This document shows positions 2,087-28,157 of a DNA stretch of 42,535 nucleotides, piece by piece. The stretch is from Gemmatimonadales bacterium (GTDB taxonomy: Bacteria > Gemmatimonadota > Gemmatimonadetes > Gemmatimonadales > GWC2-71-9). Below the pieces are notes generated by a model that saw only the letters and a list, made by a program, of their open reading frames with translations, searched no databases and was not told where the DNA came from. A program made the position numbers and the translations under genes. Every line of letters starts with the position of its first letter. Within the stretch, counting starts at the first letter, position 1. Location of the stretch: NCBI GenBank assembly GCA_025928955.1, contig JAICNA010000001.1, forward strand, positions 1-42,535, read 5' to 3'.

Positions 2087-3007
2087 CTAGTTCTGCGCGG
2101 CGAACTCCCGGACGCGGTCAGGGTCGCCGGATTCGCGCAGCTCGCGCAGCGCGGTCGTGGCACGGAGGAGGAGCTCGACCGCATCGACATCCGACGCCCC
2201 GAAGTCGCTCACGGCGCAGTAGCCGGCGCGCAGGCGGATCGGGCCGTTCCCTTCCCGCGCAACGCCCGCCGCCTCGACCACCCCGCCGAGCCGCTCGGCG
2301 AGACGCATCGCCCCGGCCGGGCCGGTGGCTGGAGCGATGACCGCGAACTCGCCATGCGCCAGGCGCCCGACCGCATCCGAGGTCCGGCCCGCCTCGCGGA
2401 ACACGCGCCCGATGCGCTCGACGACGCCGCTCGGCTCGTGGTCGAGCGCGGGACCGTGATCCGGCGAGAACACCACGCACGAGAGGGGCTGGTGGCGGCG
2501 CTGCGCCTCGGAGCCGATCTCCCGGGCGCGGCGCGCGAGACCACGCATGTTATAGAACCCCGTGAGGGTGTCGAGCAGCGTATCGTCCCGGAGGGCGTCC
2601 ACCTCGAGCTTCGACTGGACGAATGTCCGCAGCTTGAGGAGGAGCGCCTCCCCGTCCACCGGCTGCCCCAGGAACTCCCAGGCGCCGGCGCGGTACGCTT
2701 CGAGGCGCTGCGCGCGACCCGAGGGTCCGCTGGTCGTGATGATGATCGGCGTGGTCGCGCTGAAGCGGGGATCGTCCCGGAGCATGCGGCAGACATCGAA
2801 TCCATGGATGTCCGGCATCTGCGCGTCGAGGATGATCAGGTCGGGCCGCTGCGTCCGCGCCTGGTCGAGTGCCTGCTGGCCGGTGTGTGCCCTGACGACG
2901 GCGTAGCCGTTGGGCGCCAGGATGCTTTCCAGCGAGCGGGCCGACCACTCCTGGTCGTTCGCGACCAGGACGAGCGGCGGTTGAACGGCGTCATCTCTCT
3001 GTGCCAT
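2087..3007 (-). CDS. Response-regulator receiver domain fused to a degenerate GGDEF domain (AHGEF in place of GGDEF, RxxD I-site retained)
   Basis: Receiver: 'LVLVANDQE...DLIILDAQMPDIHGFDVCRML...PIIITTSG'. GGDEF-domain start: 'DTLTGFYNMRGL'. Motif region: 'RTSDAVGRLAHGEFAVIAP'. Confidence 0.85.
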   Translation of the reverse strand: MAQRDDAVQPPLVLVANDQEWSARSLESILAPNGYAVVRAHTGQQALDQARTQRPDLIILDAQMPDIHGFDVCRMLRDDPRFSATTPIIITTSGPSGRAQRLEAYRAGAWEFLGQPVDGEALLLKLRTFVQSKLEVDALRDDTLLDTLTGFYNMRGLARRAREIGSEAQRRHQPLSCVVFSPDHGPALDHEPSGVVERIGRVFREAGRTSDAVGRLAHGEFAVIAPATGPAGAMRLAERLGGVVEAAGVAREGNGPIRLRAGYCAVSDFGASDVDAVELLLRATTALRELRESGDPDRVREFAAQN

Positions 3008-11621: not shown

Positions 11622-13499
<1,878 letters not shown>

Positions 13500-13600
13500 G
13501 GGTACCCGATATCGCAAAACACGACGGCATCCCGCTCGATTTCCGACTGCAACACCTTGCATAATCCGCAGTTATAGCGGCATATAGCCGCTCAATTCAC

Positions 13601-13616
13601 TGGCAGGAATATTGCC
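13601..13616 (+). promoter_or_regulatory. Sigma-54-type promoter candidate (TGGCAG-GAATA-TTGCC)
   Basis: Near-consensus -24/-12 elements with exact spacing, in a low-GC island. It lies upstream of the riboswitch-like leader and the 13828 start codon. Confidence 0.5.
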
Positions 13617-13669
13617 AGTTGGTCGGACACCCCTGAAGGATCATTACCAAGGGAACGGCCACCGTTCCC

Positions 13670-13760
13670 GCGCTGCTCAGAGCAAAGCCGCCGAAAGGCG
13701 GTGACGCAGAGCCACGGGGCTACCGCGAGCCATTCGCGACGCCAGCCGAGCCGCCAGCGC
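13670..13760 (+). promoter_or_regulatory. GEMM-I (c-di-GMP-I)-like riboswitch aptamer, copy A
   Basis: RNA reading: (G)CGCUG-CUCAGA-GCAAA-GCCGCC-GAAA-GGCGGU-GACGCAGAGCC-ACGGGGCUAC ... CCGC-CAGCG(C). There is a GAAA-capped 6-bp hairpin (13687-13702) and junction motifs GCAAA and GACGCAxAGCC. A closing helix can form between 13670-13675 and 13755-13760. Confidence 0.6.
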
Positions 13761-13827
13761 CGACACACCCTTGCCCGGGTGTGGCTCGCCGGCGGCCTGT
13801 TCGCGTCCCGACCTCGAGGAGACCCCA

Positions 13828-16131
13828 ATGACGTACCGGCACAAGCTTTCCCGCCGTCTGGCCATGCTGCGCAACAGCGTGCTTCTCGGCCTGACGCTTA
13901 CCGCAGCGGGCTGCCGCGATAACGGGCCTTTGGGCTCAACTCTCGACCCTCTAGATTCCCACAGTGACATCATTGCGCTGCTCGCGTCCTCGGATAATCC
14001 GACCGTGGCGCCGAAGCAGCCGACCCCGATGCGGGTGGTGGCCCTGACCAAGGGGGGCAGCCACCAGTCCATCGAGGCCGATTGGATGGCGCTGGATGGT
14101 GGGCTCCTGCGGGACAGTCTGGTCGGGAAGGAGCTGGTGACCTTCTTCAGCGCCGACGAGCCGGGGGAATACCGCCTCGTGAGCTTCGACCGGGGGAAGC
14201 GGTTCCGGGACACGACCCGGGTCACCGTTCCGAGCCAGAACGTGAGCATCGCCCAGATCTTCGTCTCTCCCGCGATCGCCGCGCTCGTTGCCGGCGCTTC
14301 GCAGCAATTCTATGTCTACGGCACCAGCGAGACCGGGGATAGCGTTCCGGTCGCCGCGGTGCTGCAGCACGCGCCCGGCGGCACACCCAGCGGCCTCGTC
14401 TATACGGCCGGCGATACCGCGGGCGAGTATACCCTCACCTTCAAGCAGCAGGGTGGCCCGGCCACGGTGAACGCGACTGTCGCGGTCACCGTTCCCAAGC
14501 TCGAGTCGCCGGTCGCGGATCCGCTGCCGGAGCCGTCACCCGAGCCGACGCCGGAGCCGACCCCGGAGCCCACGCCCGAGCCGACTCCGGAGCCCACGCC
14601 GACACCCGAGCCGCTTCCCGGCGTCGGTGAGTCACCCGCGGAAATGCCGCGCGTCTATCTCGATACCCGGTACCAGGCGCCGGGCGGGCGGACGATCGTG
14701 GTGCCGAACGGCGGCGACCTCCAGGGCGCGCTCAATGCCGCGGTCCGCGGCGACGTGATCGAGCTGGCGGCAGGCGCGGTGTATACCGGCAACTTCGTGC
14801 TCCCTGCCAAGGCAGGCTCCGGCACCATCGTGCTGCGCACGGCGACGACCCTGCCGGCGGAAGGTGTCCGTGTCACGCCGGCGCAGGCGGCGGGCTACGC
14901 GCGGATCGTCACGGCGAACTCGATGCCGGCGCTGCGCACGGCAGCCGGCGGGACGGCCGGCGGCTACCGGATCATGGGCGTCGAGATCACGTCGAGCGCC
15001 TCGATGTCGTACTCGATCGTCCATATCGGCGATTACGACAATCTGGCGTCCAGCGTGGACATGCTCCCCGCCGATGTCGTGTTCGACCGGGTCTACATCC
15101 ACGGCAGCACGTCGAACGGCATCCAGCGCTGCATGGTCCTCAACGCGCGGGCAAGCGCGGTGGTGGACAGCTGGATCTCGGAGTGCCACATCAAGGGATT
15201 CGACTCCCAGGCGATCGTGGCGTGGCTCTCCCCCGGCCCGCTCAAGTTCGTGAACAATCACCTGGCGGGCGCAGGCGAGAACCTCATGATCGGCGGCGCC
15301 GACCCGCGCATCTCGGGGCTCGTCGGCTCCGACATCGAGATCCGCCGCAATCACTTCTACAAGCCGCTGAGCTGGAAGACGTCCGGCGCGTGGACGGTGA
15401 AGAACTCGTTCGAGCTCAAGAACTCGCGCCGCGTGCTGGTGGAGGGCAATCTCTTCGAGAACAACTGGAGCGACGGGCAGACCGGTTTCGCCATCGTCCT
15501 GAAGTCCATCAACGACGGCGGCCGCTGCACCTGGTGCGTCACGGAGGACGTGACCTTCCGGTACAACAAGATCGTGAACTCGCCAGGCGGCATCAATCTC
15601 GTCGCCGTGCAGGCCTATAACGGTGGCGGGGCGATTCCGGCCAACAGCATGCTCATCGCCCACAACGTGTTCGAGGACGTGGGCCTCAACTCGGCGATCG
15701 GCGACCGGCGCATCTTCCAGTTCATCGGCCAGCTCAGCAGCATCGTCGTCGAGCACAACACCGCGTTCGGCGAGAACGCCGCCGTCATGTTCGACGGGTA
15801 CCCGGCGAGCGGGCTCGTGTTCCGCAACAACCTCCTGCTCCGCGGGCAGTACGGCGTCTTCGGGAGCGGGAAGGGCGAGGGCAAGCCTGCGCTCGACTAC
15901 TTCGCGCCAGGGGCGGTCTTCGCCGGCAACCTCGTGATCGGCGCGAATCCGTCGATCTATCCGACGGGCAACTACTTCCCGGAGAGCGTGCTGACCGTCG
16001 GGCTGGTCGATTACGCCGGTGGCAACTACTCGCTTTCCTCGGGCAGCACCTACTACACCTCGGGCGTCGGCGGCCGCACCCCGGGGGCGGACTGGAGCAA
16101 GCTGTCGCAGCTCATCTCCGGGATTCGCTAG
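13828..16131 (+). CDS. Secreted (probable lipo)protein: Big2-like Ig domain(s), Pro-Thr linker, right-handed parallel beta-helix domain (candidate glycanase/lyase/epimerase)
   Basis: ATG at 13828 (GGAG 8 nt upstream) inside ORF 13771..16131. Signal sequence 'MTYRHKLSRRLAMLRNSVLLGLTLTAAGC'. Big2-like 'IFVSPAIAALVAGASQQFYVYG'. Linker '[29 protein letters not shown]'. Beta-helix-like repeats: 'IEIRRNHFYK', 'VLVEGNLFENNW', 'VTFRYNKIVNSPGG'. Confidence 0.8.
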   Translation: MTYRHKLSRRLAMLRNSVLLGLTLTAAGCRDNGPLGSTLDPLDSHSDIIALLASSDNPTVAPKQPTPMRVVALTKGGSHQSIEADWMALDGGLLRDSLVGKELVTFFSADEPGEYRLVSFDRGKRFRDTTRVTVPSQNVSIAQIFVSPAIAALVAGASQQFYVYGTSETGDSVPVAAVLQHAPGGTPSGLVYTAGDTAGEYTLTFKQQGGPATVNATVAVTVPKLESPVADPLPEPSPEPTPEPTPEPTPEPTPEPTPTPEPLPGVGESPAEMPRVYLDTRYQAPGGRTIVVPNGGDLQGALNAAVRGDVIELAAGAVYTGNFVLPAKAGSGTIVLRTATTLPAEGVRVTPAQAAGYARIVTANSMPALRTAAGGTAGGYRIMGVEITSSASMSYSIVHIGDYDNLASSVDMLPADVVFDRVYIHGSTSNGIQRCMVLNARASAVVDSWISECHIKGFDSQAIVAWLSPGPLKFVNNHLAGAGENLMIGGADPRISGLVGSDIEIRRNHFYKPLSWKTSGAWTVKNSFELKNSRRVLVEGNLFENNWSDGQTGFAIVLKSINDGGRCTWCVTEDVTFRYNKIVNSPGGINLVAVQAYNGGGAIPANSMLIAHNVFEDVGLNSAIGDRRIFQFIGQLSSIVVEHNTAFGENAAVMFDGYPASGLVFRNNLLLRGQYGVFGSGKGEGKPALDYFAPGAVFAGNLVIGANPSIYPTGNYFPESVLTVGLVDYAGGNYSLSSGSTYYTSGVGGRTPGADWSKLSQLISGIR
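14521..14619 (+). repeat. Imperfect 12-nt tandem repeats encoding a (PEPT)n linker
   Basis: ccggagccgacc-type units repeated about 6 times, in frame within the CDS. Confidence 0.7.
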
Positions 16132-16168
16132 CGCCGCGCCGGATCTTCCGAACCAGGCCAGTCCGAAG

Positions 16169-16202
16169 AAAACCGCGCCGGTCCATCCGGCGCGGTTTTT
16201 TT
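16169..16202 (+). terminator. Rho-independent terminator
   Basis: AAAACCGCGCCGG (16169-16181), loop TCCAT, CCGGCGCGGTTTT, with a 7-T run ending at 16202. It lies 38 nt after the stop at 16131. Confidence 0.85.
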
Positions 16203-16438
16203 CGACGCCCGTTTCGCGCCGCAAACCGTCGAATAATTCGACAAAGCTCCGCAGTTATACGGAGCAAGCACCAACGATCACTTGTTGCAAGTTGTTGCTG
16301 TTAAACAATCTGTATTATTGTGATCCCGGTCACAGCACCCATTTCCAGTCAGTCCTAGTTTCCCGCAGCTCTCCGGAACCCCCTCGCAGAGCTGCCCGGG
16401 CAAGAGAAGTCTCGACTGATCTTCCCACCCGTACCATC

Positions 16439-16523
16439 CGCTGCTCAGAGCAAAGCCGCCGAAAGGCGGTGACGCAGAGTCACGGGGCTACAGCCACGCG
16501 CCATGCCCGCCGGACCGCCAGCG
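16439..16523 (+). promoter_or_regulatory. GEMM-I (c-di-GMP-I)-like riboswitch aptamer, copy B
   Basis: 16439-16491 is identical to 13671-13723 except for one transition at 16480. The closing-helix partner CAGCG lies within the conserved CCGCCAGCG (16515-16523). Confidence 0.6.
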
Positions 16524-16598
16524 ACGACGCACGCCTTTGTCCCAAGGTGCGCCGCCCTGGCGGTCGCCTGCCCTGTTGACACGCATCGAAGGAAACCG

Positions 16599-19319
16599 AT
16601 GACCTACCGTCACCTCCTGTCCCGCCGGACGGCCCTGCTCCGACGTGCCACGTTCCTCAGCATGCTCGCGCTTCCCGCATGCTCCGACTCCTTCTCCCCC
16701 CTCGACAAACCAGCTGAATTCTCCGCCACCGCCGTCAAGCTTCGCGCGCGGGCCGATCACCCGGTCATCGCCGTTGCGCACTCGACCGCCCTCCGCGCAA
16801 ATGCCGTCGATGCCGACGGGGCGCGTCCGGCGCTCGATGCCGAATGGAAGTCGCTCGACGGCGGCGAGCTGCGTGACTCGGTGATCGGTTCCGAGACCGT
16901 CGCCGCCTTCTCCGCCAGCACGCCCGGGACCTACCGGCTCGTGAGCTCGAGCCAGAGCCTCTCGGCGTCCGATACCACCATCGTCATCGTCCCGAGCGCC
17001 GCGCAGACGAGCGCCATCACCAGCCTGGTGATGACGCCGGAGCGGACCTCGCTCCGGACCAACGATACGCTCCGGTTCGTCGTCCACGGCGTGACCGCCA
17101 CCGGGCAGCAGGTGCCGGCGCCGGTGTCGCTCCTGCCGGATCGCGGGTACGTGGTGGGCATGCGCTATCACTCGCGCATGGACGGCACGTTCACGGTCCG
17201 CGCGCTCCTGAACGGCGGCGCCGTCATGGACTCGGCCACGGTCACGGTCTCGGCCAACGCGGCGCTGCAGCACGACCCCGACAACGCGCCGACGCCGGCC
17301 CCCGCGACGCCGAGCGCGCCCGGACAGATCGCCCGCGTCGTGATCTCGCCCGCCCAGGTGACGCTGCGCGTGAACGACACGCTGCGCTACTGGATCCGGG
17401 GCATCACGCAGGGTGGCGATACGATCGACGCGCCCAACGTGTCGCTCGTCCCCGATCGCGGCTACATCATCGGGCGCAACAAGTACGTGTCGCGGCTGAC
17501 CGGCACGTTCGTGGTGCGCGCGGTGCTCAAGGGGTCGACACTCGCCGATACCTCGGTCGTGACGGTGACGACGGACGCCCCGTCGTTCCCGGTCGGCGAG
17601 CCCGTGCCCGAGCCGGCACCCGCGCCTGCCCCTGCGCCGGGGCCGGAGCCGACCCCCACCCCGACCCCGACGCCTACACCGACGCCGACGCCGACTCCCG
17701 CACCGGAGCCAGCTCCGACGCCGACCCCGGAACCGACCCCGACGCCGGAACCCGCACCGACGCCGGTGCCTGAGCCGACGCCGGAACCCGAGCCGACGCC
17801 GGTGCCGACACCCGCGCCCGATCCGTCGACCAGCGGCCTCGCCGAGCTCCCGCGCAGCTTCGTGGACACGCGGTATCCGGCGCAGACCGGACGCACGATT
17901 TCGGTCGGCGCCGGCGCGAACCTGCAGACCGCGATCAACAACGCCGCACGCGGCGACGTGATCGAGCTCGCCCCCGGCGCCGTCTTCAACGGCAACTTCG
18001 TCCTTCCCGCCAAGGCGGGCACGGGGTGGATCACGATCCGCACGGCCACGTCGCTGCCCCCGGAAGGCGTGCGCGTCACGCCGGCCAGCGCCGGCAATTT
18101 CGCGAAGGTCGTCACCGGGAACTCGATGCCGGCGCTGCGCACCGCGACGAGTGCCGCCGCGAGCTATTACCGGATCGTCGGTGTCGAGTTCCGCAGCTCC
18201 GCGCCGATGACGTACGCCATCGTCGACCTCGGCGACTACACCGATACGGCGACGGATCCGAGCCAGCTCTCGTCCGACATCATCCTCGATCGCGTCTGGA
18301 TCCACGGCAGCTCGACCCAGACGATCCAGCGTTGCCTGGCCCTGAACAACCGGCGGAGCGGGATCATCGACAGCCGCCTCTCCGACTGCCACATCGCCGG
18401 CGGCGAGGCGCAGGGCATCGCAGGGTGGTACGGGCCCGGGCCGTTCAAGATCGTCAACAACTACATCGAGGGCTCGGCGGAGAACATCATGTTCGGCGGC
18501 GCCGATCCGAAGTTCTCCGGCCTCACGCCGGCGGACATCGAGATCCGACGCAACCACCTGATGAAGCCGCTCAGCTGGCGCGGGGTCTGGTCGGTCAAGA
18601 ACCTGCTCGAGCTCAAGAACGCACGGCGGGTCCTCATCGAGGCGAACATCCTCGAGAACAACTGGGCCGACGGGCAGACCGGCTTTGCCGTGGTGCTCAA
18701 GTCGCAGAACCAGAGCGGCCGGTGCACCTGGTGCGTCACCGAGAACATCACGTTCCGCTACAACCGGGTCATCAACTCGCCGGGCGGCATGAACATCCTC
18801 GCCGCACAGGCGGAGAATGGCGGCGGCGCCCAGGCGGCCAACCGCATCTCGATCGTCCACAACACCTTCGAGAACGTCGGCCGGCTGAGCCAGGCCGGCG
18901 ACCGCCGGATCTTCCAGGTGCTCGGCGCGCTGCGCGACGTGCGCATCGAGCACAACTCCGCCCTCGGCGAGGACGTGGCGGTCATGTTCGATGGCCAGCC
19001 GACCGTCCGGCTCGTGCTCCGGAACAACCTCCTTGCCCGCGGCCAGTACGGCATCTTCGGCAGCGGCCGGGCGGAAGGCAGCACGGCGCTCAGCTACTAT
19101 GCGCCCGACGGCATCGTCGCGGGGAACGTCATCGTCGCCGCGCCGACCTCGATGTATCCTGCGAACAACTACTATCCGAGCAGCACGAGCCTGCTCGGCT
19201 CGCTGAGCGACGGCGTCATGCTGTCCTCGGGCAGTACGTACTGGAACAAGGCGACCGACGGCACCATGATCGGCGCCGACGCGAACCGCCTGCAGGAGGC
19301 ACTCTCGGGCGTCCGCTGA
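16599..19319 (+). CDS. Secreted (probable lipo)protein, larger paralog of 13828..16131: extra Big2-like domains, long Pro-Thr linker, beta-helix domain
   Basis: ATG at 16599 (AGGA upstream) inside ORF 16503..19319. Signal sequence '[28 protein letters not shown]'. The C-terminal ~480 aa are colinear with the paralog: '[23 protein letters not shown]', '[10 protein letters not shown]', '[19 protein letters not shown]', 'RCTWCVTE'. Confidence 0.8.
17598..17825 (+). repeat. Low-complexity Pro/Thr/Ala/Glu linker-coding repeats (~75 aa)
   Basis: '[74 protein letters not shown]'. Confidence 0.7.
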
Positions 19320-24063: not shown

Positions 24064-26019
24064 CTACCGGACGGCGGCGGCGAGGGCCGGTACGTCGAGC
24101 ATCATGTCCGCCGGTGCCTCCCCGTCGAGGAAGATCCGGTGCCAGAGCTCGAGGTTCACCAGCGACCAGAGGCGCTCCGAGTGATCGACCTCCCCGGCAT
24201 CGTGCTCGCGGACGATCCGCTCGACGGCGTCACGGGCGAAGATGCCGCGGGCTGCGGCGCGCTCGCCCAGCACGCAGTCCTGCACCACGTGGCGGTACGG
24301 GCCGCGGAACCACGCGCCCACCGGGACGGGGAACCCCATCTTGCGCCGGGACAGGATCTCCGGCGGAAGCGCATCCTTCATTGCCTGGCGCAGGATGTAC
24401 TTGGTGGTCGTGCCGCGGAGCTTGAGGCGGTCGGGCAGCCTCGTGGTGAACTCCACGAGCGGATGATCGAGGAACGGCACGCGGCTCTCGATCGAAGCCG
24501 CCATGCTCATCTGGTCCTGCTTCATCAGCAGCTCGTGCAGGTACGTCCGCATGTCGGCATAGAGCAGCTGGTTGAGCAGCGACGCGCCCCGCGCATCGGC
24601 GATCGCCTGGTGGGCGGCGGCGTAGGGGTCAATGCCCGCCAGCCGGTCCCGCATCTCGGGGGCCAGGATCTCGGCCTGCCGAGCACGACCGAAAACGGCG
24701 AAGTTGTCGAAGTAGAGCGTGTCGATGTCGGCCTGCAGGTAGAGGCCGGTTCGCATGAGCCGATTGCGGAGCCGCGTTCCGCGGGGGAGCCGCTCGACGG
24801 CGCCGCGCACGGTGCGCCGCAGCCCGTCGCCGGCGAGCCGCTGGTAGCGCTCGCTCAGCGCCACGTTGTACATCGTGGTCCGGTACCGGCCATACCCTGC
24901 CAGCGTCTCGTCGCTTCCTTCTCCGGTCAGCACCACCTTCACGTGCTCGGCTGCGAGGCGCGAGACGAAGTTGAGCGCGATGCTGGACGGGTGCGCGATC
25001 GGCTCGTCCTCGTGCCACACGAGGGTGGGAAGCGCGCCGAAGAATTCGCCGGGGCTGACGACGATCTCGTGATGATCGGTCCGGTACCGCTCCGCCACGA
25101 GCCGCGCGTACGCGAGCTCGTTCGCTTCCCGCTCGGCAAATGCCACCGAGAACGTCTTGATCGGCTCGTCGACGAGCGTGCTCATCGCCGCCGTGATGGA
25201 CGCCGAATCGATGCCGCCCGAGAGGAACATGCCGAGAGGCACGTCCGCCATGAGCCGCATGCGCACCGCGTCGCGGAAGCGCTCGCCGTACTCGGCGATC
25301 AGCTCGGCATCGGGCCGGGTGTCGATGGCCGCGGGGTCATAGCTGAGATCCCAGTAGCGCTCGATCCGCACCTCGCCATTCCGCCAGCGCAGCGTGTGGC
25401 CGGGCGGCAGGCGGCGGACGCCCTCGAAGAGCGTCTCGTCACCCGAGGGGGCGTGATTGGCCAGGTAATCGGGCAGGGCGTGGAGATTGAGCGCCGGCTC
25501 GACCGCCTGGGCCGCGAGGAGCGCCTTGATCTCGGAGGCGAAGTAGAGCGCGCCGTCGGCTGTGTGCACGTAGTAGAGCGGCTTGACCCCGAGCCGGTCC
25601 CGCGCGATGAAGAGCTCCCGCGTCCGCCGGTCCCAGATCGCGAACGTGAACATGCCGCGCAGGCGCGCCGGCGCGGCGGCGCGGTCGCGCTCGTATACGT
25701 GGAGGACCGTCTCGGTGTCGCAGTGCGTCCGGTAGGTGAAGCCTTCCCGCACGAGCTCGGGCATGAGCTCGGGGTGGTTGTAGACTTCGCCGTTGTAGAT
25801 GATCTGCAGCGCGCCGTCGGCGCTCGCCATGGGCTGCGCGCCGTGGGCCACGTCGACGATGCTCAGCCGGCGATGGCCCAGGCCCACGCCTGGCTCGAGG
25901 AAGATGCCGGCGCCATCGGGGCCCCGGTGCACGAGCACGTCCCGCATCCGCTCGATGAGTGGCGCATCGAGGCGGCGGGACGATCCATCCGGCAGTACGA
26001 TCCCGCAGAATCCGCACAT
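24064..26019 (-). CDS. asnB: Asparagine synthase (glutamine-hydrolysing) family amidotransferase, second copy
   Basis: 'MCGFCGIV' and PP-loop 'FLSGGIDSASITAAM'. Confidence 0.9.
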   Translation of the reverse strand: MCGFCGIVLPDGSSRRLDAPLIERMRDVLVHRGPDGAGIFLEPGVGLGHRRLSIVDVAHGAQPMASADGALQIIYNGEVYNHPELMPELVREGFTYRTHCDTETVLHVYERDRAAAPARLRGMFTFAIWDRRTRELFIARDRLGVKPLYYVHTADGALYFASEIKALLAAQAVEPALNLHALPDYLANHAPSGDETLFEGVRRLPPGHTLRWRNGEVRIERYWDLSYDPAAIDTRPDAELIAEYGERFRDAVRMRLMADVPLGMFLSGGIDSASITAAMSTLVDEPIKTFSVAFAEREANELAYARLVAERYRTDHHEIVVSPGEFFGALPTLVWHEDEPIAHPSSIALNFVSRLAAEHVKVVLTGEGSDETLAGYGRYRTTMYNVALSERYQRLAGDGLRRTVRGAVERLPRGTRLRNRLMRTGLYLQADIDTLYFDNFAVFGRARQAEILAPEMRDRLAGIDPYAAAHQAIADARGASLLNQLLYADMRTYLHELLMKQDQMSMAASIESRVPFLDHPLVEFTTRLPDRLKLRGTTTKYILRQAMKDALPPEILSRRKMGFPVPVGAWFRGPYRHVVQDCVLGERAAARGIFARDAVERIVREHDAGEVDHSERLWSLVNLELWHRIFLDGEAPADMMLDVPALAAAVR

Positions 26020-26048
26020 CGCTCAGCTCACACCGGGCTGCGGGTGCA

Positions 26049-28157
26049 TCACTCGTTCACCGCGCGCAGCGGACCCTCGGCGACGAGAATCTCCTGCGTC
26101 CATGCGGGCGTCGAGATCCTCACCCGGTCCTCCTGAAAGTTGACAACCGGCCGCGCGCCCTGCCCCAGCGGCACCAGCGCCGTGACGATCACGTTTCCAT
26201 CCTCCGGCCCCATCGCCCAGACACAGATCGCCGAGGCCACGCGGGCGCCGAACACGGGAGCGCTCCAGCCCGCTTCGACCCGCAGCGCGCCGGCCGACGC
26301 CGCGATGAGCAGGCCCGTCCCCTGCGGCTCGCGGAGTGTACAGGTCCGGTCGGCCGGATCGAGCTCGAGGCCGGGGGCCGCATGCCAGCGGACCTCGAAC
26401 GGGTGTCGCCCCGCGCTCACGATCGTATCCCGCACCACCCACGCACGCTGCGGCACGAAGAGGATCTCGCGCCGGTGCTCCGCCGGAGGAGCAAGGTCCG
26501 CGTACCCGTCGTGCGAGCCGTCGAAGGCGGTCCAGGCTTCGTTCGACTCCCAGCGGATCAGCGTCGCCCCGGCGCGGTTCGCCCACCTGAAGGGCGTGGC
26601 GGGGACCGACGAGGATCGACCGGCCACCGTCACCGTACTGTGCGCCGCGGAGCTCCGGAAGGCGTCCCGGTCCTCGGCCGTCGCGACATATGTGTACGTG
26701 CCGGGATCGACCAGCATGGGGCGGCCTCGTGCCGCAACTTCGATGGCGAGCGTGTCGGCGTGTCCATGGCCACCGTTGAGGCCGCCGAGCGGCCCGCAGT
26801 CCACGGCCAGGTAATTCGCCTCGACACCCCACCCGTCCCGCATCACGAAATACCCGCCATCGGGGTATGCCGCGGGGACCACTGGCTTCCGCATTCCCAT
26901 CCGCTCGAACCGGGCCGGACCGCCAGAGCCAAGGAGCCAGACCAGCTCGGGCACGGGCGCACCCGCCCCGAAGCAATAATCGGGCCTCTCGAGAAGGGCA
27001 CCGCCGAGGGCGAGCGTATCACGGAAGTCGTTGGAGTCACGTCGCTTAAGCATCACCAACCTCCCCCCGTCGTCATCGCCGATCAGGGGCCAGCGGCGAT
27101 CGGGTCGCATGAGCGCAACGGTATGATCCAGGAGGGCCTCGAGGGCGCCCGCGAGCCGGGCGTCAAGGGCCTCGCCGGCCTGCCTCCGGAGCAGCGCCAG
27201 ATGCAGGTAGAAGTCGGCGGTGTAACGGTGGTAGTAGCTCGACTGCTCGAAGTAGACCCCATCCGGACGTATCTGGCGACCCAGCTCGCCGAACAGCACC
27301 TTCTCGCCGCGTTCGACCCAGCGGGCGGCGCCGCGCAGCTCAGGGAAATGGGTGCCGATGTAGACGAGGCCGAGCGCCTCCCCCGTGAGGTGGGTATTCG
27401 GGCTGAAGTAGGTGGAGAGATGCACCTCGAGGTGACGCGCATGCACGTGCAGCATGCCGAGGATGCGCCGATACACATCCGCCTTCAGTTCGGCCGAGGC
27501 ACGGATGAGATACAGCGCCCAGGTCCAGGAGATGGCCCGGAACGCCACCTCGAGACTGCTCGCCCAGTTCATGCCCCGCTTCGGTGGATTCGCGTCGATC
27601 CACGCAGACAGCTGGCCCAGCAGGGCGCGGGGAAACGATTCGTCACCCGTGAGCGCGTACGCCTGCGCCAGGGTGACGAAGTGCTGATGGCGATTGAGCT
27701 CCCAGACCACCTTGTGATCCCCGACCACCGCGTATTCGAGATATGGAATCCGGCTCCAGTGCACGAGCGGCGCGCGGCGTCCGGAAAGGGGATCGAGCTG
27801 CCAGTCGATCGGGTCGCCGAAGGAGAGCTCGCGATGGCCGAGCAGATCGAAGCGGCCCTCGAGGGCGCGCCGCGCGGCGGCCTCGAGGGATTGGGCCTCA
27901 CCCGGCCAGAGCGCACGGAGCGTCGCCGCGGCGTCGGCGGGCTCATCCATCGCCGGGAAGACCGGGGCGGCGCGCGCGCGGAAGTCCGCAAGGAGCGCCG
28001 CGGGATCCGCTCCGCCCTGCACCAGCGAGGCAATGCGTTCGTCGCTGGGCTCGCGGCCCTCGGGGTGCCAGCCGGCACGCTCGAGCAGCACCGCCGCGAG
28101 CTGCGCGCTCCGGACGCGGATTTCCCCGAGGGTGCGGCCGCGGAGCCGGCCGATCAT
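26049..28157 (-). CDS. Heparinase II/III-like (alginate-lyase-like N-domain + Hepar_II_III) protein with no evident signal peptide
   Basis: 'DHKVVWELNRHQHFVTLAQAY' and 'GGHGHADTLAIEV'. The N-terminus 'MIGRLRGRTLGEIRVRSAQL' is not signal-like. Confidence 0.8.
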   Translation of the reverse strand: MIGRLRGRTLGEIRVRSAQLAAVLLERAGWHPEGREPSDERIASLVQGGADPAALLADFRARAAPVFPAMDEPADAAATLRALWPGEAQSLEAAARRALEGRFDLLGHRELSFGDPIDWQLDPLSGRRAPLVHWSRIPYLEYAVVGDHKVVWELNRHQHFVTLAQAYALTGDESFPRALLGQLSAWIDANPPKRGMNWASSLEVAFRAISWTWALYLIRASAELKADVYRRILGMLHVHARHLEVHLSTYFSPNTHLTGEALGLVYIGTHFPELRGAARWVERGEKVLFGELGRQIRPDGVYFEQSSYYHRYTADFYLHLALLRRQAGEALDARLAGALEALLDHTVALMRPDRRWPLIGDDDGGRLVMLKRRDSNDFRDTLALGGALLERPDYCFGAGAPVPELVWLLGSGGPARFERMGMRKPVVPAAYPDGGYFVMRDGWGVEANYLAVDCGPLGGLNGGHGHADTLAIEVAARGRPMLVDPGTYTYVATAEDRDAFRSSAAHSTVTVAGRSSSVPATPFRWANRAGATLIRWESNEAWTAFDGSHDGYADLAPPAEHRREILFVPQRAWVVRDTIVSAGRHPFEVRWHAAPGLELDPADRTCTLREPQGTGLLIAASAGALRVEAGWSAPVFGARVASAICVWAMGPEDGNVIVTALVPLGQGARPVVNFQEDRVRISTPAWTQEILVAEGPLRAVNE

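Follow-up and report, generated by a model that had tools for sequence, protein, structure and literature searches.

Candidate GEMM-I riboswitches with an A20/G48 ligand pocket precede two paralogous beta-helix lipoprotein genes in a Gemmatimonadales exosortase locus

In the Vc2 aptamer of the c-di-GMP-I (GEMM-I) riboswitch family, one guanine of cyclic di-GMP (c-di-GMP) is recognised at its Hoogsteen edge by G20, the other forms a pair with C92, and A47 intercalates between the two (PMC6140456, PMC5888326). The GEMM-Ib riboswitches, which sense cyclic GMP-AMP (cGAMP), are defined by an A at position 20 that pairs with the adenine of the ligand (PMC6140456, PMC9481103). Both OFF and ON switches have been described: Cd1 of Clostridioides difficile, an OFF switch, has an aptamer and a terminator that coexist, and the riboswitch of pilM from Geobacter metallireducens was shown experimentally to be an ON switch whose terminator sequesters the ligand-pairing C (PMC9262584). 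Here we describe an element of this family in the leader of a beta-helix lipoprotein gene (gene 1) on a stretch of 42,535 nt from a Gemmatimonadales bacterium (assembly GCA_025928955.1, contig JAICNA010000001.1, positions 1 to 42,535 of the forward strand), referred to as the window, with a G+C content of 68.5%. The element (aptamer 1) lies on the plus strand at 13670..13760 and is repeated ahead of a paralogous gene (gene 2). Pocket positions (20, 47, 48 and 92) follow the Vc2 numbering throughout, and the type found here, with A at position 20 and G at position 48, is called A20/G48, as opposed to the canonical G20/A48.

The covariance model of Rfam family RF01051 (c-di-GMP-I; 87 positions, gathering score 35 bits) matches 13671-13758 over model positions 1-87 with 58.0 bits, at an E-value of 6.4e-9 for the whole window and 6e-11 for a search of 13500-13900. 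Paired region P1, which is not part of this model, is formed by GCGCUG (13670-13675) and CAGCGC (13755-13760), with C13754 directly 5' of the closing strand. P2 combines 13682-13683/13706-13707 with the hairpin GCCGCC-GAAA-GGCGGU (13687-13702), and P3 (13711-13752) has a distal stem CGCGA/UCGCG capped by the loop GCCAU (13729-13733). The initial annotation of this DNA had proposed a GEMM-I-like riboswitch in the leader of the beta-helix lipoprotein gene, quoting the RNA of 13671-13723 and drawing the closing helix and the third helix with its GCCAU loop; all of this agrees with the sequence and with the score, and the covariance search that it had proposed as a check exceeds the gathering score and places P2 at 13687-13702, as foreseen. 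The c-di-GMP-II model (RF01786) gave no match at gathering score in the window and none at E ≤ 1 in 13500-13900, where no other family besides RF01051 was found at that cutoff. The element shares with Vc2 and Cd1 the full-length model match, the three-helix junction, the GAAA tetraloop on a 6-bp P2, the junction strings GCAAA and GACGCA, the intercalating A13708, the ligand-pairing C13754 and a link to surface, matrix and pilus genes, and differs from them in A20 instead of G20 and G48 instead of A48.

Relatives were sought in 78 genome loci encoding proteins with related beta-helix domains (protein-seeded loci) and by a metagenome scan with an A20/G48-specific sequence pattern, which returned at least 120 stretches (pattern-seeded loci); L-numbers are locus labels. 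Our own covariance model, based on 14 aptamers, was run over all collected loci. The same aptamer lies directly 5' of close full-length orthologues of gene 1 in L001, L002 (two copies), L004 (two copies) and L013 (three in tandem), the proteins being 56-86% identical. In a set of 94 distinct related aptamers, in which 21 pairs were compared with 500 shuffles and with registers slid by 1-3 columns, standard pairs occupy 96.7% of the cells, and in 17 of the 21 pairs both sides have changed; no shuffle out of 500 came up to these values, and the slid registers were only 26-42% paired. The GAAA loop occurs in nearly all of 99 relatives, and the internal-loop letters CUA...A.G of P3 are conserved. 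P3 of aptamer 1 has two mismatches, C13713 opposite A13749 and A13710 opposite C13752, which could be read as marks of a degenerated element or a chance similarity that regulates nothing. Such a reading is extremely improbable in view of the E-value of 6e-11, the two copies in the window, the conservation with orthologues and the extensive compensatory changes, and it may be taken as effectively refuted by the conservation. Because conservation, duplication, compensatory changes and scores far above chance coincide, 13670-13760 is, as judged from comparative evidence, a genuine member of the GEMM-I family whose structure is evidently under selection. The riboswitch call itself is ordinary: the family is well described, has its own Rfam model, and the matrix-gene context is typical of it.

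Aptamer 2 (16439..16523, plus strand) matches RF01051 at full length with 52.9 bits (16439-16522) and forms its P1 from CGCUG (16439-16443) and CAGCG (16519-16523). Its 5' half differs from that of aptamer 1 by one base, P3 differs by compensatory changes, and the A20/G48 type is the same. This copy at 16439-16522 was not listed in the riboswitch finding of the initial annotation. Between the two, gene 1 is followed by a canonical intrinsic terminator, CCGCGCCGG-TCCAT-CCGGCGCGG then T7 (16173..16202, plus strand), so the organism evidently uses stem-plus-U-tract terminators. Since aptamer 2 has a leader of its own and this terminator at 16173-16202 divides the genes, genes 1 and 2 appear to be separately controlled transcription units.

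The pocket of both copies departs from the canonical contact set G20, A47 and C92. The intercalating A (A13708 in copy 1, A16476 in copy 2) and the ligand-pairing C at position 92 (C13754, C16518) are kept, position 20 is A (A13681, A16449) and position 48 is G (G13709, G16477). Aptamer 1 thus carries the sequence signature of GEMM-Ib, A20 with A47 and C92 retained. In the initial annotation the variable letter of CAGxGCAAA had been passed over as a neutral difference from Vc2; it is in fact the ligand-contacting position 20, and an A there bears on the assignment of the ligand, not on the fold. The pocket reads ...AAAUAG/GC...GC/AAA/GC in the c-di-GMP riboswitch Cd1 and ...ACAAUA/CU...GG/AAA/GCC in the cGAMP riboswitch of pilM, both with A at position 48 (PMC9262584 supplement), whereas the window type, CAGA/GC...GC/AGAG, is neither canonical nor of the Geobacter type when set against these two sequences. 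In the Geobacter riboswitch Gs1761 the nucleotide after the intercalating A is among the ligand-contacting residues (PMC6274999), a single study on which we rely for the structural role of position 48.

The second characteristic of the A20/G48 leaders is a helix that competes with the aptamer. Its 5' arm is formed by the last 10-14 nt of the aptamer (...GCCGCCAGCG), including the ligand-pairing C and the 3' strand of P1, which are complementary to a segment 6-35 nt downstream. Among 94 non-redundant leaders, a helix run of at least 7 bp occurs in 91% (24% of shuffles) and one of at least 9 bp in 60% (2% of shuffles), and the pair types vary at three positions (G:C, A:T, G:U). Over all loci the helix is present in 114 of 126 A20/G48 leaders and is combined with a T-rich tract into a terminator in 88 of the 126; the third copy of L013 is a textbook case, GCCGCCAGCG...CGCTGGCGGC then CT8. 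The G20/A48 aptamers have a different arrangement, and because they end 17-30 nt from the start codon and lack the competing helix, their layout suggests translational control.

In the window, the 3' arm of the anti-aptamer helix of copy 1 lies at 13786..13809 (plus strand), where GGCGGC (13791-13796) pairs with GCCGCC (13750-13755), and in the minimum-energy fold the helix reaches approximately 13734-13760. In copy 2 the arm CTGGCGGTC (16557..16565, plus strand) pairs with GACCGCCAG at 16513-16521. One G:C pair of copy 1 has become A:T in copy 2, in step with a C-to-U change in the 5' strand of P3, a three-way covariation between the copies (C to U in the P3 5' strand, G to A in the P3 3' strand, C to T in the downstream arm). 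The helix appears in the free-state minimum-energy folds of 7 of 7 leaders of the window clade. The hairpin CACACCC-UUGCCC-GGGUGUG (13764..13783, plus strand), whose counterparts in L002, L001 and the copy-2 leaders have other sequences, forms in free and aptamer-enforced folds alike. It had been annotated as a further element following the aptamer; its sequence is as given there, and its standing as a separate element falls, as it sits in the loop of the competing helix.

Taken together, we consider it probable that the window carries a GEMM-I cyclic-dinucleotide riboswitch in two copies that works as an ON switch through mutually exclusive helices. The 3' strand of the aptamer (the P3 3' strand, C13754 and the P1 3' strand) would have two mutually exclusive partners: with ligand bound it would close P3 and P1, and with no ligand it would pair with 13786-13809 in a long hairpin. 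In most relatives this hairpin would be an intrinsic terminator, and ligand binding would turn expression ON. The same polarity is assumed for the window, where the switch would act on transcript elongation even though the U-tract is missing; we infer it from the conserved architecture of the platform, and the level of control likewise. A guanine-containing cyclic dinucleotide would be read by C13754 and A13708, and its other base by A13681. Each copy would control its own surface or secreted lipoprotein gene, aptamer 1 being transcribed from a putative sigma-54-type promoter. The design resembles that of Geobacter pilM, an ON switch in which the 5' arm of the terminator is likewise the 3' strand of the aptamer including the ligand-pairing C. 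It differs from Cd1 in that aptamer and competing helix are mutually exclusive, which implies ON.

Several observations weigh against this explanation. The helix is not followed by a U-tract in the window, L001, L002 or L004 (1-3 T in 8), while the terminator of gene 1 itself has T7, which makes intrinsic termination in the window doubtful. The tails after the two window helices are CUGUUCGCGUCC (copy 1) and GCCUGCCCUGUU (copy 2), so the stem is there and the U-tract is missing; a scan of 13000-17500 for intrinsic terminators found none on the plus strand between either aptamer and the start codon. The modelled accessibility of the ribosome-binding site (RBS) shifts in copy-1-type leaders only (0.17 free, 0.57 bound) and is unchanged in copy-2-type leaders. 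Finally, the combination of A20 and G48 fits neither the validated c-di-GMP riboswitch (Cd1) nor the validated cGAMP riboswitch (pilM). The window copies may act by U-poor termination, through Rho or on translation. A reading in which control is exerted on translation or via Rho, and not by intrinsic termination, supposes that without ligand the freed 5' strand of P3 pairs with the RBS region or that an unstructured leader recruits Rho. It would account for the helix lacking a U-tract in the window and in L001, L002 and L004, and for the fold of copy 1, in which the free-state RBS (13815-13822) is base-paired to 13714-13729 and opens further once the aptamer is enforced. We nevertheless regard it as rather unlikely: copy 2 and its orthologues show no difference in accessibility, the two copies do not share the pairing of the P3 5' strand with the RBS, and 70% of the related leaders have a clear terminator. 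RBS sequestration was rejected as the window mechanism because the free-state and aptamer-closed ensembles differ in copy-1-type leaders only and the pairing lacks conservation, and it is kept as part of this low-weight alternative.

Returning to the ON riboswitch, its ligand has to be inferred from the pocket, the platform and the context. The initial annotation had named c-di-GMP. The family assignment in this claim stands, while c-di-GMP as the ligand is not established, position 20 being A as in GEMM-Ib. An A at this position is compatible with more than one specificity. Both ligands are bound, via a protonated A, by Vc2 with the G20A change and by Cbe 1-2, a natural riboswitch (PMC6140456), and an A-variant from Desulfobacca gained affinity for cGAMP with c-di-GMP binding little reduced (PMC9481103); one Geobacter A20 representative is approximately 1200-fold selective (PMC6456294). 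Considering that c-di-GMP is the default of the family, that the context is one of exopolysaccharide (EPS), that evidence for a cGAMP synthase is absent and that A20 is known to tolerate c-di-GMP, we lean towards c-di-GMP as the ligand, alone or together with cGAMP. A selective response to 3',3'-cGAMP is a possible but clearly less probable assignment, based on A20, the pilM-like ON platform, the change at position 48, recurrent heterotypic tandems and one pilM association.

The latter assignment would leave the fold and the switch as they are and make 3',3'-cGAMP the physiological ligand of a cGAMP-selective A20/G48 lineage, which would coexist in Gemmatimonadota with canonical G20/A48 c-di-GMP aptamers; to this we give only tentative credence. 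A20 is the defining change of cGAMP riboswitches (PMC6140456, PMC9481103), the ON-terminator platform is built as in the Geobacter pilM cGAMP riboswitch, and the residue after the intercalating A, which contacts the ligand in Gs1761 (PMC6274999), is altered here. Moreover, one low-GC A20/G48 aptamer precedes a PilM-like gene, and Geobacter pilM is cGAMP-controlled (PMC9262584); the heterotypic tandems described below (13, and 3 in reversed order) are also easier to explain if the two subtypes sense different ligands. However, A20 alone does not fix specificity, as the bispecific Vc2 G20A and Cbe 1-2 demonstrate (PMC6140456), and the validated Geobacter pilM aptamer is A20/A48 with a different closing pair of P2, which marks an independent lineage. 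No cGAMP synthase was seen, the six GGDEF domains found being canonical in a tiny sample: a Hypr-GGDEF signature was present in none of them, with Asp at PleD D344 in 6 of 6 (approximately 1.4 Mb of loci, too few to count against cGAMP). No paper linking Gemmatimonadota to cGAMP was found, and a literature search for riboswitches or cGAMP in this phylum gave nothing relevant.

In comparison with the Geobacter GEMM-Ib riboswitches (Gs1761, pilM), the window aptamers share A20, the C at the Watson-Crick ligand-pairing position and the control of extracellular or surface functions. They differ from pilM in G48, G19 and G-C/C-G at the base of P2, where pilM has A48, U19 and C-G/U-G, and from the Geobacter group in the host phylum, in the missing U-tract and in a cGAMP selectivity that is only putative. 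It is conceivable, though we would not expect it on balance, that A20/G48 is a distinct GEMM-I specificity class, selective for 3',3'-cGAMP or another guanine-containing cyclic dinucleotide. In the same tentative reading the changes at positions 20 and 48 would be coupled, and the class would be abundant in soil Gemmatimonadota and independent of Geobacter GEMM-Ib.

Further GGDEF observations belong here. The window encodes a response regulator with REC and GGDEF domains (2087-3007, minus strand) whose GGDEF domain is degenerate, with AHGEF instead of GGEEF and guanine-binding residues not conserved; the protein may serve as a receptor or adaptor for cyclic dinucleotides and not as a cyclase. 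Since a degenerate domain is uninformative, the protein was rejected as a pointer to the ligand. In L129 (140-850) and L157 (276-988), a canonical GGDEF gene with Asp at PleD D344 ends just 5' of an A20/G48 aptamer.

The separation of the two subtypes was apparent throughout the collected loci, in which the covariance model found 162 aptamers: 138 A20/G48, 24 G20/A48 and none mixed, the last figure owing in part to a bias, as the metagenome pattern admitted only A20 with G48. The count of the protein-seeded loci, with 11 A20/G48 and 8 G20/A48 aptamers, is free of this bias; a further 16 G20/A48 aptamers came from pattern-seeded loci, where the search pattern could not select them. Single aptamers prevail (112 leaders with A20/G48, 8 with G20/A48), followed by 13 leaders with A20/G48 then G20/A48, 3 with the reverse order, 2 with an A20/G48 doublet and 2 with an A20/G48 triplet. 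In the heterotypic doublets listed for their spacing, the aptamer starts are approximately 180-195 nt apart, and the ordered layout is that of an A20/G48 aptamer with its own terminator followed, approximately 185 nt further on, by a G20/A48 aptamer ending 17-30 nt before the start codon. Such ordered heterotypic tandems were located at L079 5285-5553, L085 6711-6985 and L088 5691-5950, and further in L090, L096, L122, L127, L133, L139, L145, L161 and L190. The triple A20/G48 tandems are L013 1983-2385 and L128 730-1099; that of L013, 5' of the gene 1 orthologue, has a period of 157 nt and a strong U-tract terminator in the last unit only.

Tandem c-di-GMP-I riboswitches have been catalogued by Sherlock et al. 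2022 (347 doublets and 12 triplets; PMC9481103), and relatives of the window element likewise form doublets and triplets (L013, L128, L083, L093). The window differs in that each of two neighbouring paralogous genes has a single, independent unit. The tandems of the present set are mostly heterotypic, a pairing that does not appear in the logic-gate table of PMC9481103 as far as that source was available. We tentatively propose that in the relatives the heterotypic tandem could be serial wiring with a canonical c-di-GMP aptamer, in which the first unit would control transcription and the second translation, a proposal that we hold to be less probable than its alternatives taken together.

Most genes after A20/G48 aptamers encode lipoproteins in which Big_2 or fn3 repeats are joined to a domain of the beta-helix, metallophosphoesterase or phosphoesterase kind. 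Many of the products begin with the motif M-[PT]-[FY]-x-[FH]-K-L-[SA]-x-R-L-A-x-[ML]-[RK], followed by a hydrophobic stretch and a Cys, which occurs in the window at 13828-13872 and 16599-16643 and in 34 related loci (e.g., L101, L106, L130, L144). Where at least 150 nt of downstream sequence were available, it was found in 34 of 85 leader groups containing A20/G48 and in 0 of 8 groups with G20/A48 only. The two window copies differ in synonymous codons, which suggests that the motif is conserved as a protein sequence; it may be a signal for export or sorting that is specific to the lineage. The A20/G48 subtype is not confined to high-GC Gemmatimonadota, because one such aptamer (L131 9777-9864) lies in a contig of 49% G+C, 5' of a PilM-like gene (MGWFDFGKKKSVIGLDIGSS...). 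In a Gemmatimonas metagenome-assembled genome (MAG), another beta-helix-family gene is preceded by an element that matches the c-di-GMP-I-GGC variant model at a borderline 59.3 bits (gathering score 59; L006 3496-3596), and its pocket looks canonical (G20, A47, A48).

Upstream of aptamer 1 lies a putative sigma-54-type -24/-12 element, TGGCAGGAATATTGCC (GG-N10-GC; 13601..13616, plus strand), with 2 mismatches to the consensus TGGCAC-N5-TTGCW. L004 and L002 carry this very sequence and L001 carries TGGCAAGCTCATTGCC in register with it, amid diverging flanks. The relaxed sigma-54 pattern is at chance level in the window (10 matches, 10.6 expected) and was rejected as a stand-alone statistic, so the cross-locus conservation is the sole support for the element. 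The annotated positions of this promoter (13601-13616) and of the ATG at 13828 agree with ours, and the conservation across orthologous leaders speaks for the former. No sigma-54-type element was found upstream of copy 2. A palindrome, TGCAA-CACC-TTGCA (13548-13561), lies approximately 50 nt 5' of the element; L004 and L002 keep it, L001 keeps part of it, and an activator may bind there. The 11-mer CCGCAGTTATA occurs upstream of both leaders (13566-13576 and 16249-16259), the second time within a CTCCG-N8-CGGAG palindrome (16247-16264) conserved in L004. A CRP/FNR-type palindrome, TGTGA-N6-TCACA (16319-16334), stands 5' of riboswitch 2 and is kept with different spacers in L004 and L002. An 8-bp perfect hairpin, GGGAACGG-CCA-CCGTTCCC (13651..13669, plus strand), abuts the 5' end of P1 in copy 1; L004 and L002 have the same hairpin letter for letter, and L001 has none.

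Downstream of aptamer 1, the Shine-Dalgarno sequence GAGGAG (13816-13821) precedes the ATG of gene 1 (13828-13830; the reading frame has a third-codon-position G+C of 0.89), both on the plus strand. Gene 1 (13828..16131, plus strand, Pfam Beta_helix) encodes 767 amino acids (aa) with a lipoprotein-type N-terminus, two immunoglobulin-like domains, a Pro/Glu/Thr-rich low-complexity linker and a right-handed beta-helix (AlphaFold, pLDDT 79.5). The best Foldseek matches of the beta-helix are alginate lyase/chondroitinase B of polysaccharide lyase family 6 (PL6), then glycoside hydrolase families GH87 and GH28, and the family profile matches alginate lyase 6kfn (E 2e-4); the best homologues are hypothetical proteins in Gemmatimonadales MAGs. 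Gene 2 (16599..19319, plus strand, 906 aa) is its paralogue with 49% identity over 678 aa. Both are predicted to be surface or secreted lipoproteins with a polysaccharide-lyase-like beta-helix. Genes upstream on the plus strand encode GNVR/tyrosine-kinase-like, polysaccharide export and exosortase with EpsI proteins, as well as a glycosyltransferase of family GT4, a Wzy_C ligase-like protein and an amidotransferase of the XrtA/PEP-CTERM type. The locus is an exosortase/EPS locus of a Gemmatimonadales-like soil bacterium. The exosortase context and the beta-helix lipoprotein had been named in the initial annotation, and both are upheld, the former by the exosortase with EpsI and the PEP-CTERM-system amidotransferase, the latter by its N-terminus, its beta-helix and the PL6 polysaccharide lyases as best structural matches. 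A second AsnB-like amidotransferase (24064-26019, minus strand) adjoins a heparinase II/III-like protein (26049-28157, minus strand); this pair (24064-28157) is a further polysaccharide-modifying capacity of the locus.

The riboswitches described here would provide a direct RNA-level link from a cyclic-dinucleotide signal to two beta-helix enzymes in an exosortase EPS locus of a poorly studied phylum. The subtype may matter more than the riboswitch call. Positions 20 and 48 change in concert in all 162 aptamers of the partly biased set, and the A20/G48 and G20/A48 types have different expression platforms and recur as heterotypic tandems in a set order. Should A20/G48 aptamers prefer cGAMP, then cGAMP signalling would extend to Gemmatimonadota by a second, independent route to cGAMP specificity, and the two polysaccharide-lyase-like matrix enzymes of the window would be under the control of cGAMP, not c-di-GMP. 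The heterotypic tandems of the relatives, if wired in series as proposed, would then be a natural two-messenger AND gate.

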